A stretch of 64,000 bases of DNA from a virus. Shown piece after piece: positions 3,805 through 63,999 of this stretch. Position 1 is the stretch's first letter. Each line of letters opens with the position of its first letter. The stretch lies in IMG/VR virus record IMGVR_UViG_3300023176_002545; one strand, 5' to 3'. The position numbers were made by a program, and so were the translations under genes. The notes below the pieces were generated by a model. It saw nothing but the letters and a program-made list of their open reading frames with translations. It was not told where the DNA came from and made no database searches.

Positions 3805-3831
3805 TAAATACTCAGTTAACTAAGATATTTA
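3805..3831. promoter_or_regulatory. Face-to-face pair of T4-late-like TAAATA motifs in an imperfect palindrome
   Basis: TAAATA(3805-3810) CTCAGTTAACTAAGA TATTTA(3826-3831) between divergent genes. Confidence 0.5.
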
Positions 3832-45081: not shown

Positions 45082-47778
45082 TTAGTCTCCAAAGTCAAAC
45101 AAACTATTAAACGTAGTGTGTTGCTTAGTATCTTCTAGATCATATTCCAACACACCAATAAGGTTGTCTAACTTGTTATCGATAATTGTACTTTCCATTG
45201 CTGAATCATCAAATGGAAGTTCTTTAAACCATTCAGGTAAGCGGAGCTCATCTGTTGGATAAGCTACTGACGTATACCCTAGTGGATTTTGTTTTAGTTT
45301 ACAAACAATAACTTTCATACCGTCAACGATTTCTTGTGAGTATTTGTCACCATTCATTCGTTTAAGTGTGTTCCAGTTGATGCTTGCTCTTACGTGACCT
45401 GGCATATTTGCCTTGCCTTGCTTTTGCTCTAGACGTTGATAGTGTCCAATCTTGTTTGCACGTTTGGGAGAACCTTTCTCAAAGCCTGGACGTTCTTTAA
45501 ACTCTGTACGGAACTGTGTAATACGTTCTAGTATTTCTTTTTCAGGTTTGTCTTGCAACACCATTAGCAATACTTCACTTAGAAACTCTTGCATAAACAC
45601 AGGTGTGTCTGACCTACGCAAGTCTAAGCCCATTGCTTTTACTTTGCCTGGTTTACCATCTACATCTGAACGGAAACCTTCTACATCATACACTAGTGCC
45701 GCATAACGTTTCTTAGTAATGTACAATCCGCTTTCTGCAACAATTTCTCTACCTGCGGCAATAACATCTGAACGGCTCTTTGGACAGTGAAATGCTCGTG
45801 CCATAAAGTCTGGGAATGTAGTGTTTGCTTGTTCTGCTACTTGATCATAAAGTGTAATTACACTTTCTTTGGTCCAAGGTATAGTGCCTGCTTGAATTTC
45901 ATCTTTAAGAACAGGATATGCACTAAAGTACACAGAGTCAGTATCACCATAGATAACTGCTTTACCTACGTGATCATATTCGCCTGTGATAACTTTGTTT
46001 ACTTCTGCACTCATGTGCTTAACAATCTGTCTGCCAGTAAGTGTAGTTGACTGTCCTATACGTTTGTCAAAAAATCTGCAACCAGGATTAAGAATGGCCC
46101 CATAAAGAGAGTTAAGATTAATTTTTTTAACAAGTTGCCGTTTGTCCCAAAATGCAGTCTCAATAGCATTGCCTGCTTCTTTTGCTTTCTTAAGTTGTTT
46201 TTGTAGATCCTTACGTTCTGCATACCAGCGTTTTAAGATACCAGGTATCACTCCTTCAAATTCTGTTGTAAAAATTGTGCCATTAGCACTTAGCATCCAC
46301 GGCATGTGGCTGTCAAAAATTAGTTTGTGTATTTCAGCACCGCTTAATACATCACTTTTGCCATCTTCCCAATCAACAGTTAGTGCAACATCTTTGCGTT
46401 GTTCCATAACTGCTTCGTATTCTTCTGTGCTGAAACGTCCTTCCCAACTACCTGCGAATGACTTTTTCTTTAGTGTCATGTCCTCATGAATACGTGACTC
46501 GCTAATATCCGGACGTAGTTGTCCTATAATAGTTTCTGGAGCCATGTTCAAAGCACGAATCACTGATGGATACAGTGAGTTCAAGTCCATTGAACCAATC
46601 CATTTGTGTACGCCCTTTTTAGGAAACGCAACATACGCACCTGCGGCTTGTGTGTTTTCATCATCACGTTTTGGTCTGTTTGGAACTTGCAGTCCTCTGT
46701 GATGTGCTTCGTTAATAATTGCTTGCTCTGTAACTGCAACAGCACCCATTGTTGTTTGTAGAAGAACTGTATTTGCGTGTGCAAGTTCATTACTCAAATC
46801 AATAAAGCGTAGTTTCTTGTCTAGTTTGTCAAGTAGTGCAACGTCTTGTCTGTTATATTCAATAAACGTTTCGAAGTCATTGTTATACAGTTGATCAAGT
46901 GTGCCTTCATAAACAGTTTTACGCTCGCCTACTTCTAGCTCACCAATTGCATCTAATCGATATGTGTGACGTTCTTCGTATGTGTACTTACGATACAGTT
47001 CGAGCGAATCTAAATGCACACGACCTACAAAGTCATATGTTTCACTTGTCTTACCATATTTTTCATATTCACGTTTTTTAGGCATCTGACCCCACAAACA
47101 AAAACGTCTTGTGTCATCGTTGCTGAGTACACGTTTAATACGGTTAACTGTGTAAGGTACGTCATAGCCTTCTGAGTTCCAACCGCTAAAGATATCTGCA
47201 TCTTCAATTAGATCTAAGAACGCTTGTAACATAGCACGTTCGCCATTACCATCTGCGTCATTTTCAAACAGAATAACTTCGTCACCCCAACGTGCTTTAC
47301 ACATTTCTTGTGCTTGATCAAACGCAAGACCTTTGGGCGGAACTGCTAGAGTAATCAATGCACTGTCTAACCACTGTAAGCATACAGTGATAGCAGTAAT
47401 TGGCATAAACGGATCTGCAGGATCAGCAAAGCCACGCTCTGGATCAAAGTCCGTCTCAATATCCCAAAACGCAATGTTTAGTTTAGGTGCATCTTGGTTA
47501 AGATAGTTTTCGCTTAGACATTGGAATATTGGATTGATGTCGCTTTCAAAAAGTTCTTTGTCTTTGTTGATAGCAACTTCTTTACGAAAGTCTTTTGTGT
47601 TTTTACACACAACACGACTTAGAGGATCACCGTACACACTCTTGTACTTGCCTCGTGGATCTTTATAATAAAAAGTATATTTTGCAGGGTATTCGTGATA
47701 GTGTCTTTTGCCGTCACGGCGTTCAACTACACGTATAATATCTTGATCGCGATCAAACATCGCATCAACGTACGGCAT
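45082..47778 (-). CDS. polB: Family B DNA polymerase
   Basis: ExoI DIET, ExoII WNSEGYD, ExoIII YNRQD, DLNSLYPS, KINLNSLYG, YGDTDS. Confidence 0.97.
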   Translation of the reverse strand: MPYVDAMFDRDQDIIRVVERRDGKRHYHEYPAKYTFYYKDPRGKYKSVYGDPLSRVVCKNTKDFRKEVAINKDKELFESDINPIFQCLSENYLNQDAPKLNIAFWDIETDFDPERGFADPADPFMPITAITVCLQWLDSALITLAVPPKGLAFDQAQEMCKARWGDEVILFENDADGNGERAMLQAFLDLIEDADIFSGWNSEGYDVPYTVNRIKRVLSNDDTRRFCLWGQMPKKREYEKYGKTSETYDFVGRVHLDSLELYRKYTYEERHTYRLDAIGELEVGERKTVYEGTLDQLYNNDFETFIEYNRQDVALLDKLDKKLRFIDLSNELAHANTVLLQTTMGAVAVTEQAIINEAHHRGLQVPNRPKRDDENTQAAGAYVAFPKKGVHKWIGSMDLNSLYPSVIRALNMAPETIIGQLRPDISESRIHEDMTLKKKSFAGSWEGRFSTEEYEAVMEQRKDVALTVDWEDGKSDVLSGAEIHKLIFDSHMPWMLSANGTIFTTEFEGVIPGILKRWYAERKDLQKQLKKAKEAGNAIETAFWDKRQLVKKINLNSLYGAILNPGCRFFDKRIGQSTTLTGRQIVKHMSAEVNKVITGEYDHVGKAVIYGDTDSVYFSAYPVLKDEIQAGTIPWTKESVITLYDQVAEQANTTFPDFMARAFHCPKSRSDVIAAGREIVAESGLYITKKRYAALVYDVEGFRSDVDGKPGKVKAMGLDLRRSDTPVFMQEFLSEVLLMVLQDKPEKEILERITQFRTEFKERPGFEKGSPKRANKIGHYQRLEQKQGKANMPGHVRASINWNTLKRMNGDKYSQEIVDGMKVIVCKLKQNPLGYTSVAYPTDELRLPEWFKELPFDDSAMESTIIDNKLDNLIGVLEYDLEDTKQHTTFNSLFDFGD

Positions 47779-48738: not shown

Positions 48739-48767
48739 ATTATATATTAGATTTTGGGTGTTGTCAA
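48739..48767 (-). promoter_or_regulatory. sigma70 consensus promoter heading the replication operon
   Basis: TTGACA-17nt-TATAAT. Confidence 0.85.
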
Positions 48768-48777
48768 CCAGAAATGG

Positions 48778-49461
48778 TTAATTATTTTGGGCTGCGTGTT
48801 GTCTAGCTCTTGATATAGCAACTAAAGATAAATTGCCACCACCTGTGATATCATCTCCTATTTTTTGATTATTAGGACCCCATAACTGATATCTATTAGA
48901 AGCTAACATACGTATTTCATATCCTTCTGGAAAATCGTCTGTTCCAGGAGGGACTGGCGTTCCTCGACGATCAGCTACAGACGGATCTTCAGTATTGCCA
49001 TCTTCATCTTCAGGTGCATTTGCTCTATCTAAAACATATTTTGCAGAATTAAAACTCATTACAATACTATTAAGCATCATGCCTAATGCTTCGTTCTTTT
49101 TAATTTTAGGATTAGATTGTTCTGAAATAACTCTCATCATATTTGATATATTGGCCTTTTCTTGAGCACCTGGACCATTCCAGTAATTAACTAGAGCAGA
49201 AACAAGAGCTTCAAGAGAGTGACCACTGCGACTACCACTATAATGATTTCCATATATTAAAATAGCTTCTTCTGCTAATGCTTTCATATTTTGACTGTTG
49301 TAAGTCCACTCGCTTTCATCAGTACCCCATGGTCTAAATCTAGCATTTCTGCTAATAGCTAATTCTTCAGCACGATCAGCAGAAATAAATTCTTGCTGAT
49401 CACCGCCTTCAATATAAAACTCGTCTAGTTTTGCTTCTGATATTACGTCAAATACTTTCAT
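48778..49461 (-). CDS. Putative internal virion protein
   Basis: N-terminus MKVFDVISEA resembles a T4 capsid-targeting sequence. Confidence 0.55.
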   Translation of the reverse strand: MKVFDVISEAKLDEFYIEGGDQQEFISADRAEELAISRNARFRPWGTDESEWTYNSQNMKALAEEAILIYGNHYSGSRSGHSLEALVSALVNYWNGPGAQEKANISNMMRVISEQSNPKIKKNEALGMMLNSIVMSFNSAKYVLDRANAPEDEDGNTEDPSVADRRGTPVPPGTDDFPEGYEIRMLASNRYQLWGPNNQKIGDDITGGGNLSLVAISRARQHAAQNN

Positions 49462-49471
49462 CTAATTATCC

Positions 49472-52087
49472 TTACGGCGATACGTTATCGAAATCATTAG
49501 TTTCTGGTTGTTGCTGTTGAGTAGCTGTAGGATCTGTTAGTGTACCTGCTGCTCTTCTTCTTTCAACTTCTGTTTCGACTGCTGTTAATAGAGCAGGACT
49601 TGTAACCCATGCACGTCTGCCATCAGGTGAACCTTGGTGTCCTTCGAACCTATCGCCTTGCTTAATAGGATTGACGTAGTACTTTTGACCTTGCCAGTAT
49701 AGTACAATCCAGCCGCCTTCTTGTTCGTTGTCTGGAGCAATACCATTTACTGTTGTAGAGCCATTTCTTTCACTACGTGATGCTGGAGCACCCCATTGAC
49801 CTTCGCCGGTGATTTCAACATTAAATCTTCTTAGAACGCCGTTTAGTTGGATTAAGTCATCGCCGCCAAACTCTTCTGAAAGGTGTTGTAGTAGTTCAGC
49901 TTGATATCTGTCTTTGTAAATAGATTGTACGTTTTCCCAACTATTTTGTATTTTACCAAGAATAGCTAATACTGCATCTTCGGTAGTTCCCATACCAAAC
50001 AACCAGCCGCCTTTCATAGCTTCGTACAGTCCTTCAGCAGCATCAGCAGCATTTGCAATAGCTTCTACGCTTCCTGGATCACCACTATCGGCTCCTTCTA
50101 AACGAGCAACAATAGCATCAACTCTGTCTTGGTCGCTAAACGAAACTTCACCGTTAACCCAATCCATCATATCTTCGTTGTATGCATTTTGGAATGCTGA
50201 TTTAACTCTTTGCCATTCTGCGGTATCTGCAATAGAAGCTAGTATAGCCATTACTGCTTGTTCATCAGTTCCTGCACCGTCAATACCATCATGCATTGCT
50301 CTTGCTTTTTGTTGAGCATCCATGTTATCAACGTCTGTTGCTACTCTAGCATCATCCGCTGATTGTTCTGGTTCAGTTGCTGGTGCTGATCTTGCCCATT
50401 CTCCTACTGCACTAAATTGTGTTTGTAGTTCTTGTGGCAGTCCTGACTGATATTCTCCATCTTCTAGTTTTGCTTTTAGTGCATTGTACAGTTCCATTGC
50501 ACGAGCTTGTTGTTCTGGAGTTACTGCTTCTTTTAACATTGACTCAACAATGTTAATCATAGATCTAAAATCAAAAGATTTAGATTCTTCTTGTGTTTGA
50601 TTAGGCTGCTCGCCATTAAACGTTGCACCTGCTGTAATCAACTCGTTTAGTTCTTTTAGTTGTGCTGACCAAGTTTTAACATCTGGTAGTCTACCCCAAA
50701 CTAGAATCTTTTCAATAGTTTGTGGGCCTGCATCGCCATCATCTGTTAGACCAACTAGTTGCTGGAACTCTTTTACCGCACTAATTGTTTGTGGACCATA
50801 GCGTCCGTCAGTGCCAATATCCCAACCCATAGTTTTTAAGAACTCTTGTAGTTCTGTAATAGCACGAGTTTCGCCTGGATCGTTTTTAATACCGCCCTTA
50901 CCAGACTGTGCAAAGTCTGCTAGTGACATACCATTTGGATCTCCTGAAGCAGCACCGCTATCAGCAGCATCTGCATCGGCAACACCGTCTGCTACTCCAC
51001 CTTCTTGGTCTTGTGGCTGTTGTGGTGCTGTCGGAGCAGCTCCTAGATCGTCACCTGCATCGCCTGCTTGTGGTTCAATATTTGCTGCTGCTTCTCTTGC
51101 TTGTGTTACTAAACGCACAGTCTCTGCATCATCAATTTGATCTAATGATGAAGTATCTTTGAACACTAGTAGTAGTTCTTGGAACTCTGTTTCTTCTGCA
51201 TCTGTAAGTGCTTCAGTTAGCAGTCTTGCCAGTGATGAAATATAAGTAATTCCTTCTTCAGTTTGTGTACCTTCGTTACGTTTTGCAAGTAGTTCTAAGA
51301 AACGTCTTGCTTGTGTACGCATTCTTTGCTGACCTTGACGACTAGCATTTACGCCTGAGGTTTGGGCACGGTCTTCGTCACTGTATCCTAATCCACCTGC
51401 AAGTCCACCTAAGAAACCAATGTTTTCTGCTGCTTCTTCTGGAAGTAGTCCTCTATCTGCTAGAGCTCGTGCAAGACGTTCGCTTGCACCTCTTGCTTGT
51501 TGGTAGTTACCGTTCTCATCTTTTTCTGCTTTTGTAACTAGTTTGTTATCAGAGTTAAACAATGCTTCAACACGGATTTGTTTAGCAACAGCACCAAGGT
51601 ATTGTCTTTCTGAATAACTTCTGCTAACGTCATGACTTCCTGATTCAAGTTCACTGCGTAGTTCTCTAAAACCTCTTTGAATATCTTCTAAACTTGGATC
51701 TCTTCCTAGGCTTCTAACTTTAGAGTCAAAAATTCTATTGATAGCGTTGCGATCTGCTCCCCAACCCCAGTTACCCATACTTGGAATTCTTCTGTCTTCT
51801 CTGTCACTTGCTGCCGTTGCTGTGTCACCTACTTCTTCAGCACGACGACCTTGACTAGATGCTAACCATGAATCTAAACGTTCTTGATCACTATAATAAA
51901 TTTTAACAACATCGTCTGGTCCGTATCCAGAGCCTGTAATTCCAGTATATAATTTTGATGGAAGCTCTCTATTGATATTAACATTAGTTAATCCACCGTT
52001 AGACTGAATAATGCGTTCTGCATCAAATTCTCGTCTAGCTTCATTCAGTCTTTCTACAGACTCAATTAGTTTACGCATATCAGACAT
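49472..52087 (-). CDS. Large putative virion protein with peptidoglycan-binding domain and two annexin-like repeats
   Basis: PG_binding_1-like ITELQEFL...DGRYGPQT.SAVKEFQ...DGDAGPQT; annexin-like GAGTDEQAVMAIL and AMKG..GMGTTEDAVLAIL. Confidence 0.75.
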   Translation of the reverse strand: MSDMRKLIESVERLNEARREFDAERIIQSNGGLTNVNINRELPSKLYTGITGSGYGPDDVVKIYYSDQERLDSWLASSQGRRAEEVGDTATAASDREDRRIPSMGNWGWGADRNAINRIFDSKVRSLGRDPSLEDIQRGFRELRSELESGSHDVSRSYSERQYLGAVAKQIRVEALFNSDNKLVTKAEKDENGNYQQARGASERLARALADRGLLPEEAAENIGFLGGLAGGLGYSDEDRAQTSGVNASRQGQQRMRTQARRFLELLAKRNEGTQTEEGITYISSLARLLTEALTDAEETEFQELLLVFKDTSSLDQIDDAETVRLVTQAREAAANIEPQAGDAGDDLGAAPTAPQQPQDQEGGVADGVADADAADSGAASGDPNGMSLADFAQSGKGGIKNDPGETRAITELQEFLKTMGWDIGTDGRYGPQTISAVKEFQQLVGLTDDGDAGPQTIEKILVWGRLPDVKTWSAQLKELNELITAGATFNGEQPNQTQEESKSFDFRSMINIVESMLKEAVTPEQQARAMELYNALKAKLEDGEYQSGLPQELQTQFSAVGEWARSAPATEPEQSADDARVATDVDNMDAQQKARAMHDGIDGAGTDEQAVMAILASIADTAEWQRVKSAFQNAYNEDMMDWVNGEVSFSDQDRVDAIVARLEGADSGDPGSVEAIANAADAAEGLYEAMKGGWLFGMGTTEDAVLAILGKIQNSWENVQSIYKDRYQAELLQHLSEEFGGDDLIQLNGVLRRFNVEITGEGQWGAPASRSERNGSTTVNGIAPDNEQEGGWIVLYWQGQKYYVNPIKQGDRFEGHQGSPDGRRAWVTSPALLTAVETEVERRRAAGTLTDPTATQQQQPETNDFDNVSP

Positions 52088-52685
52088 TGTTTTTCTCCAT
52101 GTGTTCTTTTAGTTGTTTGTTTAGCATAGCTACTATTGATTCTGTTTGTTCGGGCTCAGTTACTTCTGGTGCTGGTTCTTGTTGTGCAGAATCTTCTCTA
52201 TTTGCAATTTTAATAATATTATCTAGCATTTGTGCTAGTCTTGGTTCTTCTAGTATACGCTCTAGCATTTTAGCATACGGAGCAAACGCTTCACGCTGTT
52301 TTGGCTGCATAATTTCACCGTCCATTGCTCTACGTATTGCTTGTTGTACTAGAACTGTTGGATCTTCTGAGCCAACATCTTTTCTTGTTTTTGTAAGTCC
52401 AGGAAGTAAACTTGGTGCAGGACCTGTTGGTTCTGCTGCTACTTCTGCATCTTCTTTTAAGTATTTAGGGGTATGTTTAACACCTGCTAGTGCAGCAAGT
52501 CCTGCTAAGTCTAAGTCTAAAGGTAAACTGCCCGGAGCAACTTGGGCACTTTCATTTACATAGTCTTTAGTAGGTGGAACATCTGAAACTGTCTTGCCTG
52601 CTGCGGCAAGTAGTGCTTCTCTATCTCTTTTAGGATCTGAAGGAATAAGATCTTTCATGAGATTGCTCATTGCGTAGAAATCCAT
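52080..52685 (-). CDS. Putative virion protein
   Basis: 201-aa ORF in the structural run with LAGV and xNE/xKE motifs. Confidence 0.6.
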   Translation of the reverse strand: MDFYAMSNLMKDLIPSDPKRDREALLAAAGKTVSDVPPTKDYVNESAQVAPGSLPLDLDLAGLAALAGVKHTPKYLKEDAEVAAEPTGPAPSLLPGLTKTRKDVGSEDPTVLVQQAIRRAMDGEIMQPKQREAFAPYAKMLERILEEPRLAQMLDNIIKIANREDSAQQEPAPEVTEPEQTESIVAMLNKQLKEHMEKNNV

Positions 52686-53179
52686 TAGTTGCCTGCCTCT
52701 GCTGCTTTAAATGCTGCTACAGCCATTTCTCTACGTTTTTCTTTTGATTTGCCTTGAAACTGTGGAGCATTTGACTCTTGAAAGTCTTTGATCCATGCTT
52801 CAATTCCATCGGAAACTTGAAGTTTTTCTGCTAGTTTAGATTCTAATACTTTGCTTAGTGTTTGCTTGTAGTTTACAGAATCTTTAACAGGAACGTATGC
52901 TTTTTTTGCTTTTGCAGTTTCAACAACATTTTCTTCAAACTTCATTTCATAATCTAGTGCATGATACACAGATCCAATGTAGTCTGCTGCTTTAGTAATT
53001 TTTGATTGCTGCCAACCTTCAATGCCTTGTGCTTCTGAAACACCTTTTAGCATATCATGCAATTTAATTGCATATTTGGCAATTTTGTATAATTCGGCTC
53101 GTGCCATTTGCACTTCGTGATCACGCTCAACTGCGTGAGCCATATCACCTAAGTGTCCTTCGTTAACTTTTTTAGTCAT
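52685..53179 (-). CDS. Putative internal virion protein
   Basis: MTKKVNEG start; GATAAATA at 53205-53212 and AGGAG SD. Confidence 0.6.
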   Translation of the reverse strand: MTKKVNEGHLGDMAHAVERDHEVQMARAELYKIAKYAIKLHDMLKGVSEAQGIEGWQQSKITKAADYIGSVYHALDYEMKFEENVVETAKAKKAYVPVKDSVNYKQTLSKVLESKLAEKLQVSDGIEAWIKDFQESNAPQFQGKSKEKRREMAVAAFKAAEAGN

Positions 53180-53223
53180 TCGGTTGCTCCTAAATACTAT
53201 AATGTATTTATCAAGGCAACGTC

Positions 53224-53748
53224 TTACGAGGCTCGTTTTATTGTTTTGGGTTTAGCACTAGCCATTAGAGTGTCTTTTCCATCTAGTGCATTTTTGGCTG
53301 TGCCGTCTGAATTTTTACGTTGTGGTGCTATAGGAACACCGTATTTGTCACGTTTGATCTTAGCATATGCTGCACGAGGATTTGCAACACTAGCAATATT
53401 ACCTGAACTAGTTGCACCTGCACTTGCGTCTTCTTTAACACAAGAGCCTTTTTCGCCACGCTTCTTACCTTTTACTTTGCGATAACCTTTCCAGCATTTG
53501 TTGTATACTTTACTATTACCGTGTGCTTCTAGAAATGCTTCTTTAATATCTTCATCTGAAATTACATAGCGATGGTCACTACCTGAACGAGGTTTTAGTT
53601 CTTTACCTACAATAAACTTTAACCATTCTGCAAGTTGTTCAATATCATCTGTTTGTGCAACTTTATCTGCGATTAAACTAATGATATGTGAGCGTAAACG
53701 GCTTTTATCTAATACTAGGTTACCTTCTACTATTTCAAATATTTTCAT
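53224..53748 (-). CDS. Putative internal virion protein
   Basis: MKIFEIVEG start; CWKGYRKV...CVKE module; AATAAATA 5 nt before ATG. Confidence 0.6.
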   Translation of the reverse strand: MKIFEIVEGNLVLDKSRLRSHIISLIADKVAQTDDIEQLAEWLKFIVGKELKPRSGSDHRYVISDEDIKEAFLEAHGNSKVYNKCWKGYRKVKGKKRGEKGSCVKEDASAGATSSGNIASVANPRAAYAKIKRDKYGVPIAPQRKNSDGTAKNALDGKDTLMASAKPKTIKRAS

Positions 53749-53752
53749 ACTA

Positions 53753-54823
53753 CTATTTATTCCTACCTGATTTCATGTTAGCACACCAATGATACATTTT
53801 GCCTCGTTCACCACTATACTTTTTTGCTTTTTTACGTAAACTAGTTACACTACCTTTACAACTAGCACCTGCTTTTTTAACTCTACCCGGACGGCTTTTG
53901 CCTTTCTTCTTACCGTCAGCAAAGTTTTCGTCTATACTTTCAATAGTCTTTTCTATACCTTTTAGTATTTTAGCAATTTCCTGCTTACCTAAATGTACAA
54001 TCTTTTCAGCAGCTTCTGCTTTACCCTGATCCATATGCTCACCTGCTCTAACGTTAGCATTAAATCTATCTGCTTTTCGTTGAGCATTTTCCATCTTAGT
54101 AAGAACTTTGTCTATTTGTTGAGCTTCTTTTTCTGTAGCCTTAAGAGGTTGTTTAAAGTTTTTTTGCACAACTCTATGTAACCATTGCAGTCCACGCTTA
54201 CTAAGTTCTGGAGCAGCAGTTCTTGCTAGAATAGCAATTATTATTAGAGGGTTTTCAACTAAATCTACACTTTCAGCAAAGTTTTCTTCTACAGGCTCTT
54301 GTATATGCTGTTTAATAGCATCAGCAGTTCTTTCAAACTTGTGATCTTTATATTTAAAACCAACACCACCTGCACCTTCCCAGTTGCGTATGTTAACACC
54401 GTAGTCATCAATTAGTATGTTAGGAGTACCATCTCTTTGTGTAGCATATCTTGCTTTGTCGTGTGTAATAATAACACGCTTTGGTGGAAAGAAATTTAAA
54501 TTATTTTCAATCCATTCACGTTTGTGTGGTTCTGAATTAGGATCATCTGGTAATGGTGAGCTTAGTATATTGTACTCGCCTCTAACATCCTTAATAAGAT
54601 TTAATAAGTTTTGTGCATTAGCAGTCATAGGCAAGTCTAACCAAAAGTTTTCAGTGTCTCTAATCTTTTGTAGTGCTGGTTTGATATCCGTAATATCTCT
54701 CCAACCTTGTCCTATAAGTTTTTTCCATTCTGTAAAAAAGTCTGCAAGAACTCCATCCATGTCTACGAAAATTTCAGTAGTACTGGCTATTTCGTTTTCA
54801 TATATAAGTTCTCTTAATCTCAT
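53753..54823 (-). CDS. HAD 5'(3')-deoxyribonucleotidase-like domain fused to putative virion modules
   Basis: IFVDMDGVLADF, ILSSP, K..W, ILIDD....I..W...GG.G; N-terminus MRLRELIYENE. Confidence 0.75.
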   Translation of the reverse strand: MRLRELIYENEIASTTEIFVDMDGVLADFFTEWKKLIGQGWRDITDIKPALQKIRDTENFWLDLPMTANAQNLLNLIKDVRGEYNILSSPLPDDPNSEPHKREWIENNLNFFPPKRVIITHDKARYATQRDGTPNILIDDYGVNIRNWEGAGGVGFKYKDHKFERTADAIKQHIQEPVEENFAESVDLVENPLIIIAILARTAAPELSKRGLQWLHRVVQKNFKQPLKATEKEAQQIDKVLTKMENAQRKADRFNANVRAGEHMDQGKAEAAEKIVHLGKQEIAKILKGIEKTIESIDENFADGKKKGKSRPGRVKKAGASCKGSVTSLRKKAKKYSGERGKMYHWCANMKSGRNK

Positions 54824-55512
54824 GACTTCTTTTTCTTTTTAGGTTTGTATCCATTAGCAAATGCTGCTTTGCGTTGTGCATCGCTTGCAAAGCCTTCAAC
54901 AAATTTTAAATTATCATAATAACTTGGATCTTCAGCAATATGATCTAGTGCAATTTCTTTTGCAACTTCAAAATTACTAGTATGTTCATATTCAACTTCA
55001 ATGCCCATTTCTAATTGTTTAAGAATTTGTTTTACAGGTACATTGTGTTTACTAGCAAGATCAGAAATAGACGGAGTTGGTTTGTCTAAATCTTCTATGC
55101 TATGGCCGCCCTCCATAAGAGCCAATTCATAATCAGTAAACGTTTTACTACTGTTTACTTCTTCTTTGTCATTGTAGTAAGCAAGAAACTCTTTGTGTTT
55201 TTTTCTAAAAGTCATTTCAGCACGTTGTGGATTACGCACATATATACGCTTCCATGCTTTGTATTCTGGATTGTTTGCTAGTCCACCTTCAAACCAACTC
55301 AAAGGATTAAATCCTTCTGTTAGGCCTAGGTTAAACATTGTGTTAGGATTGTTTTTAGATTTTTTAGTAATAAGCGGAGGACGTCCATCTTTGTCTACTT
55401 TGAAGCCAAACTTTGCTGCTTCTTTAGAAACTTGATCTACATCAACATCGGGTGTAGTGTTAACACCTTTTACAATGCGTCCAACGCCTTCGTCTAGTTG
55501 ATCTATTTTCAT
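54820..55512 (-). CDS. Putative virion protein (DUF5661-like C-terminal module)
   Basis: GIEVEYEHT...AKEIALDHIAEDPSYYDNL; MKIDQLDEG start. Confidence 0.55.
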   Translation of the reverse strand: MKIDQLDEGVGRIVKGVNTTPDVDVDQVSKEAAKFGFKVDKDGRPPLITKKSKNNPNTMFNLGLTEGFNPLSWFEGGLANNPEYKAWKRIYVRNPQRAEMTFRKKHKEFLAYYNDKEEVNSSKTFTDYELALMEGGHSIEDLDKPTPSISDLASKHNVPVKQILKQLEMGIEVEYEHTSNFEVAKEIALDHIAEDPSYYDNLKFVEGFASDAQRKAAFANGYKPKKKKKS

Positions 55513-55730
55513 TTCTTGCGTCCTCTAAACTTTGAATTAACAGATCCTGTCATATGTGGTAAACTAAACCAAAGTTTAAACCAATCAGCATCGCCTGGCT
55601 TTAATCCTAGCTCACGTTCTTTTTGTTTTAGTTCATTTGCAGTGTGTGATATATTCTCAAGAGATACAGTGTTTTGCCAAGGTTGTGGCTCGTTTACACC
55701 TGCTAATCTTTTGAGTTCTTCTAAATCCAT
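55509..55730 (-). CDS. Small putative virion protein
   Basis: MDLEELKRLAGVNE start; coupled at both ends. Confidence 0.6.
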   Translation of the reverse strand: MDLEELKRLAGVNEPQPWQNTVSLENISHTANELKQKERELGLKPGDADWFKLWFSLPHMTGSVNSKFRGRKK

Positions 55731-57568
55731 TACACACCTGCTAACATCTTAATTCTATCTAGCTCAACACTTTCATTTGGTCTTGCCATATCTTGCATTA
55801 GTTTTTCAATAACTGCTAGTTTTATTTGATAGTATTCTGCTTGTGTTCTAAGTTCAGGATCGCCTTGAAGTTCTTGAACCATTCCTTTTAGTTCATTGAT
55901 GAGCCCTGAGAAAGTAGCTTCACCTCTTACTTCTCCGCCAAAGTCAGATTGTAACATTCTTTCAATAGTGACTCTAGCAACTGCTTGCGGTATTTCACCT
56001 GCAAGTTCTGCTTGAAGTGCTTTCATAGCATTTAAACTTTGTGTTTCTTCTGCTGGTGAGTTTTGTTGATAGTTTAGTGCAGGGTTTAAAAATCTGTCAC
56101 GGAACAGTGCCGGAAGTTGTCCATCGCTGCCGCTGCCGTATGCTTGTTGGAATCTTGATATTTGTTGTGCTGTTGCTGTAGCACTGTCTACACTCGGTGC
56201 TGCTTCAGGTTCTTGCACTCCGCCTAGACCTGGTGTTGTTTGATTTGAACCACCTGGAGTTGTTGTAGTTGAAGGTCTTTGTACTTCTGAATCGCCGCCT
56301 ACTTCTGGACTTTGTAAAGTAGGAGAATCTGTGCTTGCAGTTGGAGTAGGTGTAGTTCTATCAACTGTTGGTACTAGCTCTGCAATATATGCAGCCATAG
56401 CACCACGTTCTCTCCAGTTGTTGTTTAGACCTTGTTCAACTGCACGTTGAGTAATAGTTTGTATTAGTTGATCGTTTGGCATGGTTGCACGTACTCTAGT
56501 TAGTTCAGCAACTTGTGCTCTAACAAACTCTTCGGTTGCTTGTCTTGCTGCTTCTTCACGTCTTGCTGCAACTTCTGCATTGCCGTCGCCACGACCTGAT
56601 CCAGTAACTTCTGGTTCGTCTGCTGTTCCTTGCTCTCTGTTTAATCTGTCAATGTATTGTTGACCTTCACCATCTGCTTTAGATCTTGTAAACGGATTAC
56701 CATTGTTGAAACTTGTGTCAATACTGCCGTCTGGACGTCTAACAACAAAAGTAGTAGGATTGTTTGGTGACGGAGTAATACGCCATTGACCAGTACCTTC
56801 AATCTCATTGTCACGCATTGTGCTTGCAGGATCTGCAGGGCGTTCTATGCCCATGCCCTGAGCTCGTTGTGCATCTCGACCGTCTATGCCTGCACCGGCT
56901 GCACGTTCTTGATCTGCTTCGATATCTGCTTGTGCAACACGTATTAGTCCTTGTAGATCATTACTTGTTTCTTCTGTACCATTTGGACGTATAAGTAAGA
57001 ACATATCTTCACCGTCTACACGACCACGTTTTATTTGATATCCGTCTGGAAGACCTTGTGCAAACTGTGGATCAACATCTTGCCAACCGTTTTCTGGTTC
57101 TGCAACTTGTTGACTCATTACATCAGCTTCTGAACCACGTGGTTGTCCATTGTTGTCTGCTGCTCTACGAGCTGCTTCTGCACCGCCGTCACCACGTCCG
57201 ACACCTGTTGGTTCTTGTGCTGCTGGTTCTTGTGCTGCTGGTTCTTGTCTTAGTGTAAGTTCAATTTCACCTGGATCTAATGCACTCCAATCGGTGCCAG
57301 GTCTTATTTGACCATAGTCGCTTGATGCACCTGGTTCTTCTGCAAATTTACGAATTGCTGCTTGTGTTTGTCCACCTGCAATACCGTCAACGGTAATTTT
57401 TGCTGCTGTTTGAAAATTTCTAACAGCTCTTTCTGTAGCAGGACCAAAGATACCATCTGCTGGTCTAATACCCAATGCTCTTTGCATTGCTTTAACTTCG
57501 TCGCCTCTGCTGCCACGTCTTAGTGTTGCTTCGTTTAATGTTTTATAAAATAGTTCACGTAGTAGCAT
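55730..57568 (-). CDS. Putative virion protein with N-terminal peptidoglycan-binding domain
   Basis: LRRGSRGDEVKAMQRALG...DGIFGPATERAVRNFQ...VDGIAG.QT; low-complexity linkers. Confidence 0.75.
   Translation of the reverse strand: MLLRELFYKTLNEATLRRGSRGDEVKAMQRALGIRPADGIFGPATERAVRNFQTAAKITVDGIAGGQTQAAIRKFAEEPGASSDYGQIRPGTDWSALDPGEIELTLRQEPAAQEPAAQEPTGVGRGDGGAEAARRAADNNGQPRGSEADVMSQQVAEPENGWQDVDPQFAQGLPDGYQIKRGRVDGEDMFLLIRPNGTEETSNDLQGLIRVAQADIEADQERAAGAGIDGRDAQRAQGMGIERPADPASTMRDNEIEGTGQWRITPSPNNPTTFVVRRPDGSIDTSFNNGNPFTRSKADGEGQQYIDRLNREQGTADEPEVTGSGRGDGNAEVAARREEAARQATEEFVRAQVAELTRVRATMPNDQLIQTITQRAVEQGLNNNWRERGAMAAYIAELVPTVDRTTPTPTASTDSPTLQSPEVGGDSEVQRPSTTTTPGGSNQTTPGLGGVQEPEAAPSVDSATATAQQISRFQQAYGSGSDGQLPALFRDRFLNPALNYQQNSPAEETQSLNAMKALQAELAGEIPQAVARVTIERMLQSDFGGEVRGEATFSGLINELKGMVQELQGDPELRTQAEYYQIKLAVIEKLMQDMARPNESVELDRIKMLAGV
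57209..57250. repeat. 15-bp in-frame tandem repeat encoding (QEPAA)n
   Basis: GGTTCTTGTGCTGCT repeated twice plus a partial copy. Confidence 0.7.
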
Positions 57569-58142
57569 CTGCGGTTTCCTCGTCTCTAATACCCATTCCT
57601 GATCTTACTGCTGCATACATTTCGTCTGCAACTTCTGGATTAGGTACTCCTTGTTTAAAAGAATCTAAATCGCCTTCTGCCGCTGCTTGACGCATTTTAC
57701 TTGCACTCATGCCTTCTGCTCCGTCTGCGTCTGGATCACGTTCACCGGCACTTACAACTTGTATATTTTTAAATGTATAATCTTTACCGTTATACTTGTT
57801 TAGTAATTCTTCAAATGATTTAACACGATCTGATCCTGCAACATATATTAGATGATCGTATCCTAATTCTTGTACTTTTTGTAGAGCTTGTATAATAGTT
57901 CTTACTTCAGGATGTCCAATAGTAATTTCTGGAAAGAAAAATTTAGCGTATCTTAGTTTGTCTGTAAATGACAAAGGATCAGTTGCAGGTTTTTGTGACT
58001 GACTTAGAAATACATAGTGGTCACCTGGTAGGTTTTTAATCTTTTCTACTAGTTTTGCATGACCAATAGTGGGCGGGTTCATACGACCAAAGGCCATTAC
58101 TGCCGTTCTAGTTGGTGCCTCAAATATTTCTCTGAGTCTCAT
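57555..58142 (-). CDS. HxGH nucleotidyltransferase (cytidylyltransferase/NMNAT-like)
   Basis: FGRMNPPTIGH.KL, DPLS...K, AGSDR, MSASKMR; N-terminus MRLREIFEA. Confidence 0.8.
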   Translation of the reverse strand: MRLREIFEAPTRTAVMAFGRMNPPTIGHAKLVEKIKNLPGDHYVFLSQSQKPATDPLSFTDKLRYAKFFFPEITIGHPEVRTIIQALQKVQELGYDHLIYVAGSDRVKSFEELLNKYNGKDYTFKNIQVVSAGERDPDADGAEGMSASKMRQAAAEGDLDSFKQGVPNPEVADEMYAAVRSGMGIRDEETADATT

Positions 58143-58471
58143 TAGTTGGCTCCTGTTTCAATATCATATATTTTACAAGCCAACAATTCAATTTCTTCTT
58201 CATCAAGTAATTTTTCAGAATCTGCATTAACTTGAAACTTTTCTACATACTGTTTGCAAGCATTTAAAATAATAGGTTCTAATGAACTGCGTGGATCTAT
58301 TTGTACGCCTTTTTTGTGTTGGCTGCACATATTAGAAACCGCTGGATAATATGTTCTACGATAGAACATAGGATCATTAATCATAAATTGATGCACGTCA
58401 TCAACTACATCATAGTCAAAACGTACCTTTTGTGAATCTTGTTCGCTGTTAAAAAATTCTCTTAATAACAT
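58142..58471 (-). CDS. Putative internal virion protein
   Basis: Likely start MLLREFFNSE just after the stop of the upstream gene. Confidence 0.6.
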   Translation of the reverse strand: MLLREFFNSEQDSQKVRFDYDVVDDVHQFMINDPMFYRRTYYPAVSNMCSQHKKGVQIDPRSSLEPIILNACKQYVEKFQVNADSEKLLDEEEIELLACKIYDIETGAN

Positions 58472-58472
58472 C

Positions 58473-59066
58473 TTACCACTTCCTACATGACCAGTAACGT
58501 GCCTTATGACGAGGTCCTGGATTATCGCAATTATGTCTAGCACGGAATGAACGTCTACGTGCTGGGTTAGACTTTTTAATACGCATAGTCTTGTCACCAA
58601 AGTTAACTTTTACAATATTACCCTTTGGATTCTTTACATATACTTTAAATTTTTTAACATCGCCTTGCATAGGCTTGCCAAGTTTTACTTTACGTCCGCG
58701 GTATTCTGCTTCATCAATTTCATCATCGTCGTTGTACCACATTACACCATATGCTTCAAAAAACTCATCTCCATCATAAGTTTCTTCGTCAGTATCTTCG
58801 CCTGTAATTTCAATATCAAAGTTGTCATAACCTTGTGTATATAAATGTGTGTACAGATGATCTGCTAGTTTGTCTGCTTCTGCATCACTAGGAGATTCTT
58901 TAATACCTACACGATAAACAGTTTTACCACCTTTTGCTTCAAAAACAACATAGTCTGTTTCTTCTTCCATTAGTGATTCGTTGATGTTATCAAAACATGC
59001 AAGGAATGTTTTGCTAAAGTTTCTATCTGGTTTTTCATCAAATACTATGCTAATAAAGTTTTCCAT
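58473..59066 (-). CDS. Putative virion protein with basic C-terminal module
   Basis: Acidic N-half; C-terminal NPARRRSFRARHNC..ARYWSC.KW. Confidence 0.6.
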   Translation of the reverse strand: MENFISIVFDEKPDRNFSKTFLACFDNINESLMEEETDYVVFEAKGGKTVYRVGIKESPSDAEADKLADHLYTHLYTQGYDNFDIEITGEDTDEETYDGDEFFEAYGVMWYNDDDEIDEAEYRGRKVKLGKPMQGDVKKFKVYVKNPKGNIVKVNFGDKTMRIKKSNPARRRSFRARHNCDNPGPRHKARYWSCRKW

Positions 59067-61854: not shown

Positions 61855-61891
61855 TCTTTTATATTCCTATAATATACTAGTGTATTTATCG

Positions 61892-62573: not shown

Positions 62574-63260
62574 TTAAATATCTAAGTCGTCACTGGTCAC
62601 TAGGCGTGTAACACTTTGTATTCCTTCGCCTATAAACAGTGTAACTATATTTAAAGTTTTTTTGTCTTTTACGTGTATTATACGACCCTCAGAAAGAAAA
62701 GAATCTGTCATCAGCTCTTTTAAAAATATATTGCTTATTTTAACATGCTTTGGAAATTTTTGACACCATTCTGCAAAAGGTTTAAAAGACTGTCTAACGT
62801 ATCTAGTTTTAAGTTTATATTCGTATTCGTTATTTTTTACTATTTCAATGTTAGGATTTTCTAACAAATAAGATGCCATATCAGTGTTTTTAGGCTCCAT
62901 AAAGTCAACTATATGGTAGTGCAGTTTATTTTTTAAACTGTCTAACCATACAGTATCATTACTAAAAACATTGATAGTTTTACTTTCAATACGTAGAGTA
63001 AATTCAGTATTTGCAGTTGTAAAAATATTAAGTAGTCTTAATGCTAGGTGTATATCTGACATTTGTATAGCATTGCCAGTGCCATATATACCAAAGGTTG
63101 GAACTATACCTTTAGCAATGTCTTGATTCCAAAGATCTAATCTATATTTTGCATAATTAAAATCTTTATTTCTAAAGATACTGGCTAGGTGACATCTAAT
63201 CCCTAGCCTGTATGCATATTTTTTATAAAATAGTTTTGAAGTAAACTTATTCTGATACAA
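62574..63260 (-). CDS. Hypothetical protein
   Basis: Long ORF after clpA; start uncertain (TTG at 63260 or ATG at 63311). Confidence 0.6.
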   Translation of the reverse strand: MYQNKFTSKLFYKKYAYRLGIRCHLASIFRNKDFNYAKYRLDLWNQDIAKGIVPTFGIYGTGNAIQMSDIHLALRLLNIFTTANTEFTLRIESKTINVFSNDTVWLDSLKNKLHYHIVDFMEPKNTDMASYLLENPNIEIVKNNEYEYKLKTRYVRQSFKPFAEWCQKFPKHVKISNIFLKELMTDSFLSEGRIIHVKDKKTLNIVTLFIGEGIQSVTRLVTSDDLDI

Positions 63261-63999
63261 CGGTTTCTTCCACTGACTCTGTAACAAGCAATAGATTACC
63301 GTCTTTGACATCGACTTTTACGTCACCACCGTTTCGAAGATCACCAAACAACAATAGTTTCGACAAAGGACGTTTAATGTCTTGATCGATAACACGTTGT
63401 AATGGTCTTGCACCCATTGTTGGATCAAAGCCTTTATCAACTAGATAATCTAGTGCATCGTCTGTAATAGTCATATTTACGTCTTTGTCTACAATTTGAG
63501 TTTTTAGTTCTAGCAAGAACTTACCAACAATCTTCATCATTGTGTTCTTTTCTAGTTTACCAAATGTAATAACGCCATCAAGTCTATTACGGAACTCTGG
63601 ACTAAAGTATTGTTTTAGTTCAGTATCTTCATAGTCTCGAACATCTTCACCAAAACCAATAGTATTCTGTTCGCTTGCGGCTGCACCCAAGTTAGTAGTT
63701 AAAATAAGAACACAATTACGTGCATCTGCTACTTTACCATTACTACCTGTAACAAAACCATTGTCCATAATCTGTAGTAGGATCTGTGAAACATCTGGGT
63801 GTGCTTTTTCAATTTCGTCTAGCAATAGAACACAGTTAGGAGTTTCTTGAAGTTTAGTAATCAATAGTCCTGCGTTTTCTTCGTGTCCTACATAGCCTGG
63901 AGGTGAACCAATAAACTTAGCAACTGAGTGCTTCTCCATAAACTCTGACATGTCAAAGCGTACTAATGGAATACCCAAGTGCTTGCTCAACTGTTTAGC
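63247..63999 (-). CDS. clpA: ClpA/ClpB-family AAA+ ATPase, C-terminal D2 domain (truncated by window edge)
   Basis: RFDMSEFMEKHSVAKFIGSPPGYVG, LLLDEIEKAHPDV, LILTTN, FSPEFRNRLD, MGARPLQR. Confidence 0.9.
   Translation of the reverse strand, partial: AKQLSKHLGIPLVRFDMSEFMEKHSVAKFIGSPPGYVGHEENAGLLITKLQETPNCVLLLDEIEKAHPDVSQILLQIMDNGFVTGSNGKVADARNCVLILTTNLGAAASEQNTIGFGEDVRDYEDTELKQYFSPEFRNRLDGVITFGKLEKNTMMKIVGKFLLELKTQIVDKDVNMTITDDALDYLVDKGFDPTMGARPLQRVIDQDIKRPLSKLLLFGDLRNGGDVKVDVKDGNLLLVTESVEETVVSE

Follow-up and report, generated by a model that had tools for sequence, protein, structure and literature searches.

Why should ten genes in a single block of phage DNA, whose products have little else in common, begin with variants of the same short N-terminal sequence? 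The block, here termed the cassette, spans positions 48,778 to 59,066 of a 64,000-nucleotide (nt) stretch of viral DNA (IMG/VR record IMGVR_UViG_3300023176_002545), the whole of which was analyzed and is referred to below as the window. An initial annotation of this DNA had described about nine proteins sharing a T4-like capsid-targeting N-terminus and had proposed that they form a virion cargo system. As an overall explanation of the locus, the leaders are probably propeptides of the type of the T4 capsid targeting sequence (CTS), and loading of the tagged proteins into the head, followed by cleavage of the leader, is likewise likely. Ejection of the cargo with a host-directed role is a more tentative proposal, drawn by analogy with T4, that falls a little short of being probable.

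Under this explanation, the leader, an N-terminus of 8–16 residues in which charged and hydrophobic positions alternate up to a final (L/I/V/F)-x-Glu, would bind the scaffolding core of the assembling prohead, as in T4, so that the attached protein becomes enclosed. A prohead protease of the gp21 family (Peptidase_S77) would cut after the leader Glu and, where a protein has several modules, also between these at the same motif. The cargo, which comprises a cytidylyltransferase-like enzyme, a 5'-nucleotidase, peptidoglycan (PG)-binding and annexin proteins, basic Cys modules, and a mimic of the capsid propeptide, would be released into the host along with the DNA. Of this scheme, we infer core binding, proteolysis, the number of copies, and delivery to the host.

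The window was compared with 80 related IMG/VR loci, retrieved with the cytidylyltransferase protein as query, with one complete relative (G003; 357,559 bp), which was read whole, and with a partial relative (G004). The window DNA polymerase is 42–50% identical to those of jumbo phages of the T4 superfamily (Phosso, Atu_ph07, and GAP32) and 85% identical to that of G003, with which the window also has gene order in common; the phage is an uncultured T4-like one of a jumbo lineage, with a genome probably of ~350 kb as in G003. The cassette DNA had no megablast match among 50,697 phage records.

Leaders and their distribution

All 10 of the N-termini quoted in the initial annotation are real and sit at gene starts on the minus strand, between positions 48,778 and 58,471 (Table 1). 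The clustering that it described is therefore upheld, whereas its count is not: ten genes carry a leader, whereas the 201-aa gene and, probably, the 197-aa gene in the same span are untagged. The leaders are indeed attached to otherwise unrelated domains, in that the 12 proteins are unrelated beyond the leader, save for a PG-binding domain common to the 612-aa and 871-aa proteins. Nearly all of the gene starts have a Shine-Dalgarno-like motif 9–13 nt upstream, and many overlap the preceding stop codon.

Table 1. Positions of the cassette genes, promoter-like motifs, and flanking genes in the window; an arrow marks the bond after a leader-type Glu.
Feature	Position	Strand	N-terminus or leader	Remarks
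DNA polymerase gene	45082–47778	-
Sigma-70-type promoter, TTGACA-17-TATAAT	48739–48767	-		Perfect (12/12 positions); directly after last cassette gene
227-aa protein	48778–49461	-	N-terminus MKVFDVISEA; leader MKVFDVISE↓A	Last cassette gene; function unassigned
871-aa acidic protein	49472–52087	-	N-terminus MSDMRKLIESVERLNEA; long leader MSDMRKLIE↓SVERLNE↓A	PG-binding domain and annexin repeat
201-aa acidic protein	52080–52685	-	N-terminus MDFYAMSNLMKDL	Inside cassette, without leader
164-aa helical protein	52685–53179	-	Short leader MTKKVNE↓G	Most conserved cassette member
ATAAATA (GATAAATA) late-promoter-like motif	53205–53211	-		25 nt upstream of 164-aa gene
174-aa basic protein	53224–53748	-	Leader MKIFEIVE↓G	Second half a copy of capsid propeptide, cut site, and N-arm
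356-aa protein	53753–54823	-	Leader MRLRELIYE↓NE	5'-nucleotidase (NT5C) module and basic Cys-containing C-terminal module
230-aa protein	54820–55512	-	Leader MKIDQLDE↓G	N-terminal module ending GLTE↓G, then DUF5661
73-aa protein	55509–55730	-	Longer leader MDLEELKRLAGVNE↓P	Start overlaps 612-aa stop
612-aa acidic protein	55730–57568	-	N-terminus MLLRELFYKTLNEA; leader MLLRELFYKTLNE↓A	N-terminal PG-binding domain
195-aa cytidylyltransferase-like nucleotidyltransferase	57555–58142	-	Leader MRLREIFE↓A
109-aa protein	58142–58471	-	Leader MLLREFFNSE↓Q	Function unassigned; internal ATG of a listed 152-aa open reading frame
197-aa conserved backbone gene	58473–59066	-		Upstream cassette edge; probably without leader
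Clp-like gene, C-terminal part	63247–63990	-

The leader consensus is M-[KR]-[LI]-x-[ED]-[LI]-[FIY]-E, with a small residue next. A strict regular expression for the leader (^M{1,2}[KRLFI][ILVMAFT].[EDQN][ILVFM].{1,3}E) matched 5 of the 12 cassette genes and 0 of the 81 other open reading frames (ORFs) of the window (Fisher p = 1.5e-5), so that within the window the strict motif is confined to the cassette. Across 27 related IMG/VR loci that contain both conserved anchor genes, loci that lack statistical independence, it matched 71 of the 182 cassette genes left after removal of redundancy, and none of the 279 flanking genes. Eight of the 488 ORFs of G003 match; three of these belong to the cassette, two to a cluster at ~347–357 kb, and one is close to genes for the head and neck. 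By a position-specific scoring matrix trained on the relatives' cassette genes versus their flanking genes, six of the seven highest-ranked window ORFs (93 in total) were cassette genes (area under the curve 0.83), in a test of limited independence because homologues of the window genes are present in the training set.

Among the 71 matches in relatives, the leader is 8 residues long in 53, 9 in 16, and 10 in 2, and the residue after the leader Glu is mostly A, D, T, G, or S. Two families have longer leaders, of the forms MDxxEL[KR][KR]LAG[VI]NE↓ and MSDMRxLIxxxERLNE↓. The cleavage rule of the T4 prohead protease, (L/I)-x-Glu, has its counterpart in all 10 window leaders as [LIVF]-x-E within residues 7–16; the residue three positions before the cut (P3) is L or I in 62 of the 71 leaders of relatives, although for leaders of 8 residues the expression itself admits only I, L, V, F, or M at P3.

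Leader codons vary synonymously (CTC, TTA, or CTA for Leu; AGA or CGT for Arg). Ahead of the leader starts lie the terminal portions of the genes before them, whose DNA is unrelated. Within one family whose body start is fixed, MRLREIFE, MKLIDLNE, MKISELLNE, and MKVYEILNE each stand ahead of GRIVKGVNTT. Given these synonymous differences, the unrelated upstream DNA, and the drift of the leader before a fixed body start, the leader is conserved at the protein level only.

The leader is also an add-on. The NT5C proteins of phages phiM9 and Phosso, encoded among ordinary metabolic genes, are without it, and in an AlphaFold model of the 164-aa protein residues 1–9 are unstructured, with long helices after them. 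This protein has 64 relatives, and in a 30-sequence alignment an invariant core begins at residue 10, preceded by a variable start of the form M-x3-5-[IFV]-x-E-G.

A second leader cluster was observed in G003 at 347000–357000 (minus strand), with MKINEIVLE, MKIKDVMVE, MRFQEFKTLLTE, and MNLRKEMKAILKE, together with further genes that have looser leader-like starts. It includes a 364-aa protein with a ..HLEDLVF.. motif, as in Syn9 gp183 and Melnitz gene 16; a homologue of this protein is placed within the cassette in one related locus (L030).

Module joints and head maturation

The motif that ends the leader recurs between modules of longer cassette proteins. In one relative (L009), the cytidylyltransferase opens a 1228-aa chain, in which it is followed by ..KVKE↓GDLVLDQSRLRSHII, corresponding to module 1 of the 174-aa protein, and by a body resembling that of the 612-aa protein, with a C-terminus (..RLKVLAGV) of the 612-aa type. 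Module 1 of the 174-aa protein is internal in L009, L027, L036, and L058, where it directly follows VKE↓G, VKE↓G, IDE↓G, and VGE↓G. The NT5C module is an internal part of longer proteins in no fewer than seven distinct relatives, immediately preceded there by [LM]-x-E-[AN]-x-G-E, and a GRIVKGVNTT...G[LM]xE module is found behind nine different leaders, always ending G-[LM]-x-E↓ and with varied modules after it. The basic tail ENFADGK...HWCANMK, which ends the 356-aa protein, closes four different architectures. Where a module that is N-terminal in one cassette protein is internal in another, 59 of 95 distinct junction contexts have [LIVMF]-x-E at positions -10 to +2, vs. 22.6 ± 4.0 (maximum 37) at random positions within the same proteins; this comparison counts related sequences, and is thus descriptive and not a clean probability.

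The density of internal [LIVMF]xE[AGS] sites is only moderately raised (8.4 in the cassette vs. 3.2 per 1000 aa, N-terminal sites included), and the polyprotein-like processing suggested in the initial annotation therefore rests on the junction analysis instead. Support for that suggestion comes mainly from relatives, such as the 1228-aa fusion that holds three modules separate in the window; the window proteins themselves have mostly one to three modules.

A gp21-like protease, which the cargo proposal presupposes, and a matching capsid site were found in the syntenic relatives G003 and G004. G003 has a T4-type head module (Portal_T4, Peptidase_S77 at 111645–112268, and Gp23). Its capsid protein contains ..TRRYLAE↓SATAGATSAGNVATLNRV, reading ..RRYLAE↓SATAGATSAGN, and this YLAE↓ is the only (L/I)-x-E just before the conserved N-arm, which aligns with T4 gp23. 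The N-terminus of the G003 scaffold is MLDALKKLFE↓N and that of an acidic core protein is ..MLERLINE↓D; an 82-aa protein encoded between portal and protease starts MILRELFYFDKE, near-identical to the leader of the 612-aa protein. The head genes of G004 present the same picture of leaders and putative cut sites. In the T4 record, gp24 (MAKINELLRE↓S), gp22 (MLKEQLIAE↓A), and gp23 (..SFLTE↓A) have sequences of a form like the cassette leaders; gp68 begins MLLIPE.., and MKTYQEFIAE heads exactly two genes.

The 174-aa protein contains a copy of the capsid site itself. The copied stretch, residues 66–125, takes in the end of the propeptide, the cut site, and the start of the N-arm. Residues 66–121 align with residues 10–56 of the capsid protein of G003 (pairwise E 2e-4) across ..E↓(D/S)A(S/T)AGATS(S/A)GN, and the cut-site pair reads VKE↓DASAGATSSGNIASV in the 174-aa protein vs. 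LAE↓SATAGATSAGNVATL in the capsid protein. Small proteins that consist of a leader plus the capsid-like motif occur in most relatives, and relatives also have proteins of 57–72 aa with nothing beyond a leader, this motif, and a basic tail (phrog_17311). The capsid-propeptide copy in the 174-aa protein may be a decoy or regulator of the protease, or an anchor lining the capsid.

Virion proteins of relatives and known cargo systems

Homologues of cassette proteins have been detected in virions. A cytidylyltransferase (T4-GC190) was reported from purified S-SM1 virions (Sullivan et al., 2010; PMC3037559), and S-CREM2 gp154 is listed as a virion protein by mass spectrometry (MS), with kinases and cytidylyltransferases described by the S-CREM2 authors as frequent in cyanophage virion proteomes (PMC10665884). 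S-CREM2 gp154 shares 35% identity with the 195-aa protein (E 5e-29) and starts MKNFSSFLTE↓A; the S-CREM2 capsid protein contains ..LLTE↓A. Other non-structural virion proteins of S-CREM2 (OR473000) start MKDFDSFLEE (ORF6), MKDLHSFLTE (ORF13), (V)KRFDAFLTE (ORF14), and MQTFSMFFSE (ORF136), giving a leader form of MK-x-F-x-x-F-L-x-E. In the block of ORF1 to ORF15, the leader is present in 4 of 5 MS-detected proteins vs. 0 of 10 undetected proteins. When a pattern derived from the T4 CTS was applied to all starts in six frames of S-CREM2, 5 of the 8 matches were exact starts of MS-detected proteins (p ~0.015–0.017); this pattern fits the S-CREM2 leaders, not the window leaders. HTVC008M and Melnitz have the same cytidylyltransferase/NT5C cluster, with leaders present. 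In Table 3 and the virion-protein text of the S-CREM2 paper the leader goes unremarked (PMC10665884), and a full-text literature search for "capsid targeting" with "cyanophage" returned a T4 review only.

The closest known system is that of the T4 internal proteins (IPI, IPII, and IPIII) and Alt (Mullaney and Black, 1996; reviewed in PMC9026906, PMC5694885), in which unrelated mature proteins likewise carry a short N-terminal propeptide. For IPIII, residues 1–10 are enough for packaging, and cutting is controlled by positions 8 and 10 (PMC9026906, PMC5694885). As in the cassette, the T4 propeptide ends in (L/I)-x-Glu, the sequence recognized by prohead proteases of the gp21 family; the genes are located away from the head module, related phages differ in the set, and the cargo includes an enzyme (Alt). 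Unlike T4, the window has ten tagged genes in one 10-kb block, and the relatives string modules into chains as long as 1228 aa. Most leaders here have 8–9 residues, vs. MKTYQEFIAE in T4, and their sequence does not literally match T4 positions 4, 7, 8, and 10: no window leader has the full set of T4 CTS determinants (aromatic residue at 4, Phe 7, Ile 8, Glu 10; PMC9026906), and none combines an aromatic residue at 7 with Glu at 10. Pfam and PHROG scans of all cassette proteins found no homology to IPI, IPII, IPIII, or Alt in the mature parts. The T4-like capsid-targeting claim in the initial annotation is well supported, if indirectly, by several independent observations: the (L/I)-x-E match, the protease and the matching capsid and scaffold sites of a syntenic relative, the module shuffling, and the detection of homologues in virions by MS.

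T-even phages carry varied CTS proteins (PMC9026906, PMC5694885), and the variable basic ones of T2, T6, and others (reference 69 in PMC9026906) likewise occupy a hyperplastic slot in which only the leader is retained. Those are small proteins of coliphages of ~170 kb, whereas here a jumbo lineage shuffles modules at protease-type joints. The virion cytidylyltransferases of cyanophages (S-SM1 T4-GC190, PMC3037559; S-CREM2 gp154, PMC10665884) are homologous to the 195-aa protein and, as gp154 shows, can have a T4-like leader, although the leader consensus differs from that of the window lineage and no targeting mechanism is given in the portions of those papers that concern these proteins.

Two further systems are less similar. 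The inner-body or ejection proteins of phiKZ, 201phi2-1, and SPN3US (PMC5694885, PMC10052503) are likewise trimmed after Glu, by a distant gp21 relative (gp175/gp245), but at S/A/G-x-E or A-x-E, with propeptides often of >100 residues and no short common leader, in another phage lineage; here the leaders have 7–16 residues, with L, I, V, or F at P3. Polyvalent proteins (Iyer et al., 2017; PMC5512222) likewise combine several effector domains in one polypeptide and are predicted to be packaged and delivered with DNA. They are defined by domain content (2–15 effector domains in one polypeptide of a portal-terminase phage), and often have a peptidase of their own, with no shared N-terminal leader or prohead-protease joints evident in the sections of that paper that describe them; window proteins have one to three modules, and the relatives' chains are 590–1228 aa long. 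Overall, the cassette is most likely a lineage-specific variant of the known T4 capsid-targeting mechanism with a large modular cargo slot, and not a new mechanism.

Promoter-like motifs give some indication of timing. ATAAATA occurs at window positions 3826, 22920, 30483, 53205, and 61883 (all on the minus strand), 24–32 nt upstream of gene starts and preceded by G in 4 of 5 cases; the copy at 61883 is ahead of a 925-aa fibre-like gene just upstream of the cassette, which lies between this gene and the DNA polymerase unit. The motif is probably the late-promoter core of this phage, in place of T4's TATAAATA, and the copy ahead of the 164-aa gene is a weak hint of late transcription. The sigma-70-type promoter (Table 1) heads a unit with an 86-aa gene and the DNA polymerase gene, and the cassette itself contains no sigma-70 match of 11 or 12 positions. 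This layout fits a late cassette beside an early unit, and proves nothing.

Several observations weigh against a CTS-type role for the leaders, in addition to the use of related sequences in the locus counts and the junction test. Most leaders are shorter than the T4 CTS, with Glu at 7–9 (short leaders) or 13–16 (long leaders) vs. 10 in T4, and the aromatic residue of T4 position 7 is missing from the window leaders, so that core binding has to be assumed. The 612-aa and 871-aa proteins, with their wall-binding domains, are large and acidic, unlike the small basic internal proteins of T4. For S-CREM2, the association over the whole genome is modest (p = 0.015), and this phage is a distant relative whose leader consensus differs. 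Just one GATAAATA lies within the cassette, and the T4 late promoter TATAAATA is absent from it, with only two copies in the window, below chance.

Cargo, alternative roles, and implications

The cassette is, on comparison of the related loci, a hypervariable slot in which relatives retain the leader grammar and exchange, fuse, or split the cargo. Among 63 representative cassette proteins of relatives, the majority have no Pfam family; those found were PG_binding_1 (n = 6), NT5C (n = 5), Pterin_4a (n = 3), GH19 (n = 1), and LysM (n = 1). A protein-atlas search matched unnamed viral clusters only.

Two window proteins are enzyme-like. The 195-aa protein has Pfam CTP_transf_like over residues 17–152, at least 557 relatives in IMG/VR, and ~45% identity to Syn9 gp184; tblastn matched 562 phage records, mostly of Synechococcus phages, and a comparison with PDB sequences gave no match. 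The 356-aa protein has NT5C over residues 18–158 (phrog_2643). At its C-terminus (window 53753–53930, minus strand) we observed a basic three-Cys module, ENFADGKKKGKSRPGRVKKAGASC..GSVT.LRKKAKK.SGE.GKMYHWCANMKSGR, which is also present in G003 (223405–224493), L036, and L060, where it closes four different architectures in all, always after x-x-E↓N; it may belong to a head protein and bind DNA or metal. A Pterin_4a (pterin-4a-carbinolamine dehydratase) module was observed in the cassettes of G003 (223405–224493, minus strand) and two other relatives.

The two large acidic proteins have wall-directed domains. PG_binding_1 covers residues 21–72 of the 612-aa protein (pI, i.e., isoelectric point, 4.6) and residues 409–461 of the 871-aa protein (pI 4.5), which also has Annexin over residues 594–649 (Pfam E 7e-12), a pairing that is unusual for a phage protein. 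Relatives of the 871-aa protein, of 801–938 aa, begin MSDMRDLINKLERIDE or MNNLRQYIDILDE. The 73-aa protein belongs to a conserved family of ~70 aa in which the N-terminus is always ..[KR]LAG[VI]NE↓F (21 distinct examples). At its junction with the 612-aa gene (window 55730–55760, minus strand), the 612-aa protein ends ..ELDRIKMLAGV and the overlapping next gene starts MDLEELKRLAGVNE; the ..LAGV or ..LAGM ending of the 612-aa body is retained in L009 and L011. This ending may be left over from a former fusion, or it may duplicate the leader helix at the C-terminus. The sequence ..LAGVNE was also considered as an internal polyprotein joint and rejected, as it occurs almost solely as the N-terminus of the ~70-aa family.

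The remaining proteins are less readily assigned. DUF5661 covers residues 151–206 of the 230-aa protein. The 109-aa gene begins with an ATG directly after the stop of the 197-aa gene, and 66 relatives of its product begin with leaders of the MK[IL]xEF type; no Pfam or PHROG family matched it. The 201-aa protein is also without a Pfam or PHROG family, and its relatives start MDFxALQxKLF, without a conserved Glu. For the 227-aa protein, no homologue was found in G003, in the fetched IMG/VR loci, or in a metagenome scan, and no Pfam or PHROG family matched. The model of the 164-aa protein had no match among PDB folds. Cys-rich modules, HCSDKCCGSDVKREDCKCPPDCKHCNCN and ..CWKGYKR..GKRVNKCV, were seen added to the 164-aa helical core in several relatives (L040, L053, L049, L051, and others), and the CWKGY piece of these Cys-rich tails also occurs in the 174-aa protein (pI 9.7). 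The 197-aa protein (40-relative alignment, 67% mean column identity) has a C-terminal module (phrog_7595) that also closes a cytidylyltransferase fusion protein in Melnitz. Its N-terminus, MENFISIVFDE, was considered as an eleventh leader and dropped, as residues 3–9 are modelled by AlphaFold as beta-strand 1 of a ferredoxin/ACT-like domain.

The cargo might instead be loaded and trimmed but act inside the particle, as scaffold or core, as DNA-condensing proteins, as a regulator or decoy of the protease, or as capsid lining. Such roles would suit the 174-aa protein with its mimicry of the capsid propeptide and cut site, the several very basic tails (pI 9.3–9.7) or Cys-rich basic modules, and the 164-aa helical protein, a conserved core member without an enzyme fold; the scaffold and core proteins of a relative bear the same leader. 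We nevertheless consider this explanation unlikely, since neither the enzymes (cytidylyltransferase-like, NT5C, and, in relatives, Pterin_4a) nor the wall-directed domains (PG_binding_1, plus LysM and GH19 in relatives) have an obvious job in the capsid, the locus is hypervariable, as arms-race cargo would be, and the internal proteins and Alt of T4 are injected (PMC9026906, PMC5512222).

A quite different possibility is that the leader is a tag read by a phage ClpA/ClpB-like unfoldase with a DnaJ-like chaperone, for regulated unfolding or degradation. Clp unfoldases often recognize N-terminal tags, and in G003 and related loci a 748-aa Clp_N and double-AAA+ protein and DnaJ are encoded a few genes upstream of the cassette (G003 227806–230881 for the two); the Clp-like gene (domains Clp_N, AAA, AAA_2, and ClpB_D2-small) is represented in the window by its C-terminal part (Table 1). 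This seems very improbable, however, given that tagged homologues occur in HTVC008M, Melnitz, Syn9, and S-CREM2 with no Clp or DnaJ annotated in the regions read, that the S-CREM2 leader tracks presence in the virion, that Phosso has Clp and DnaJ genes beside a leaderless NT5C, and that the leader resembles the propeptides of capsid, vertex, and scaffold proteins. The chaperone region of Phosso was also seen to contain a peptide deformylase.

That the leader is a by-product at the DNA level (duplication, recombination at gene starts, or a translation-initiation element) with no protein meaning, as tightly coupled genes with overlapping stops and starts and the commonness of MK-type starts in A+T-rich phages might suggest, is largely refuted by the unrelated upstream DNA, the synonymous leader codons, the absence of the motif from all 279 flanking genes of relatives and all 81 other window genes, and its recurrence at internal module joints, away from translation starts.

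If the leaders are CTS-type propeptides, a short sequence rule would predict the head cargo of aquatic T4-like phages that make up a large, abundant group, and would explain the metabolic-looking enzymes that recur in cyanophage virion proteomes and were published without a mechanism. The leader would also be a natural modular loading tag additional to that of T4. We tentatively suggest, without regarding it as the likelier outcome, that the leader and the [LIVMF]-x-E joints form a general head-cargo grammar across marine and estuarine T4-like phages, Kyanoviridae included, in which case the delivered proteome would be readable from sequence. It would then include, in this lineage, nucleotide enzymes (cytidylyltransferase/NMNAT-like and 5'-nucleotidase) active ahead of phage gene expression, and wall-binding cargo (PG-binding, annexin, LysM, and GH19) active in the periplasm as the DNA enters. 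Provided that the leaders are CTS-type propeptides, the cargo proteins would be candidates for the earliest contact with the host and its defences, and the cassette slot is most likely where this lineage adapts to those defences.

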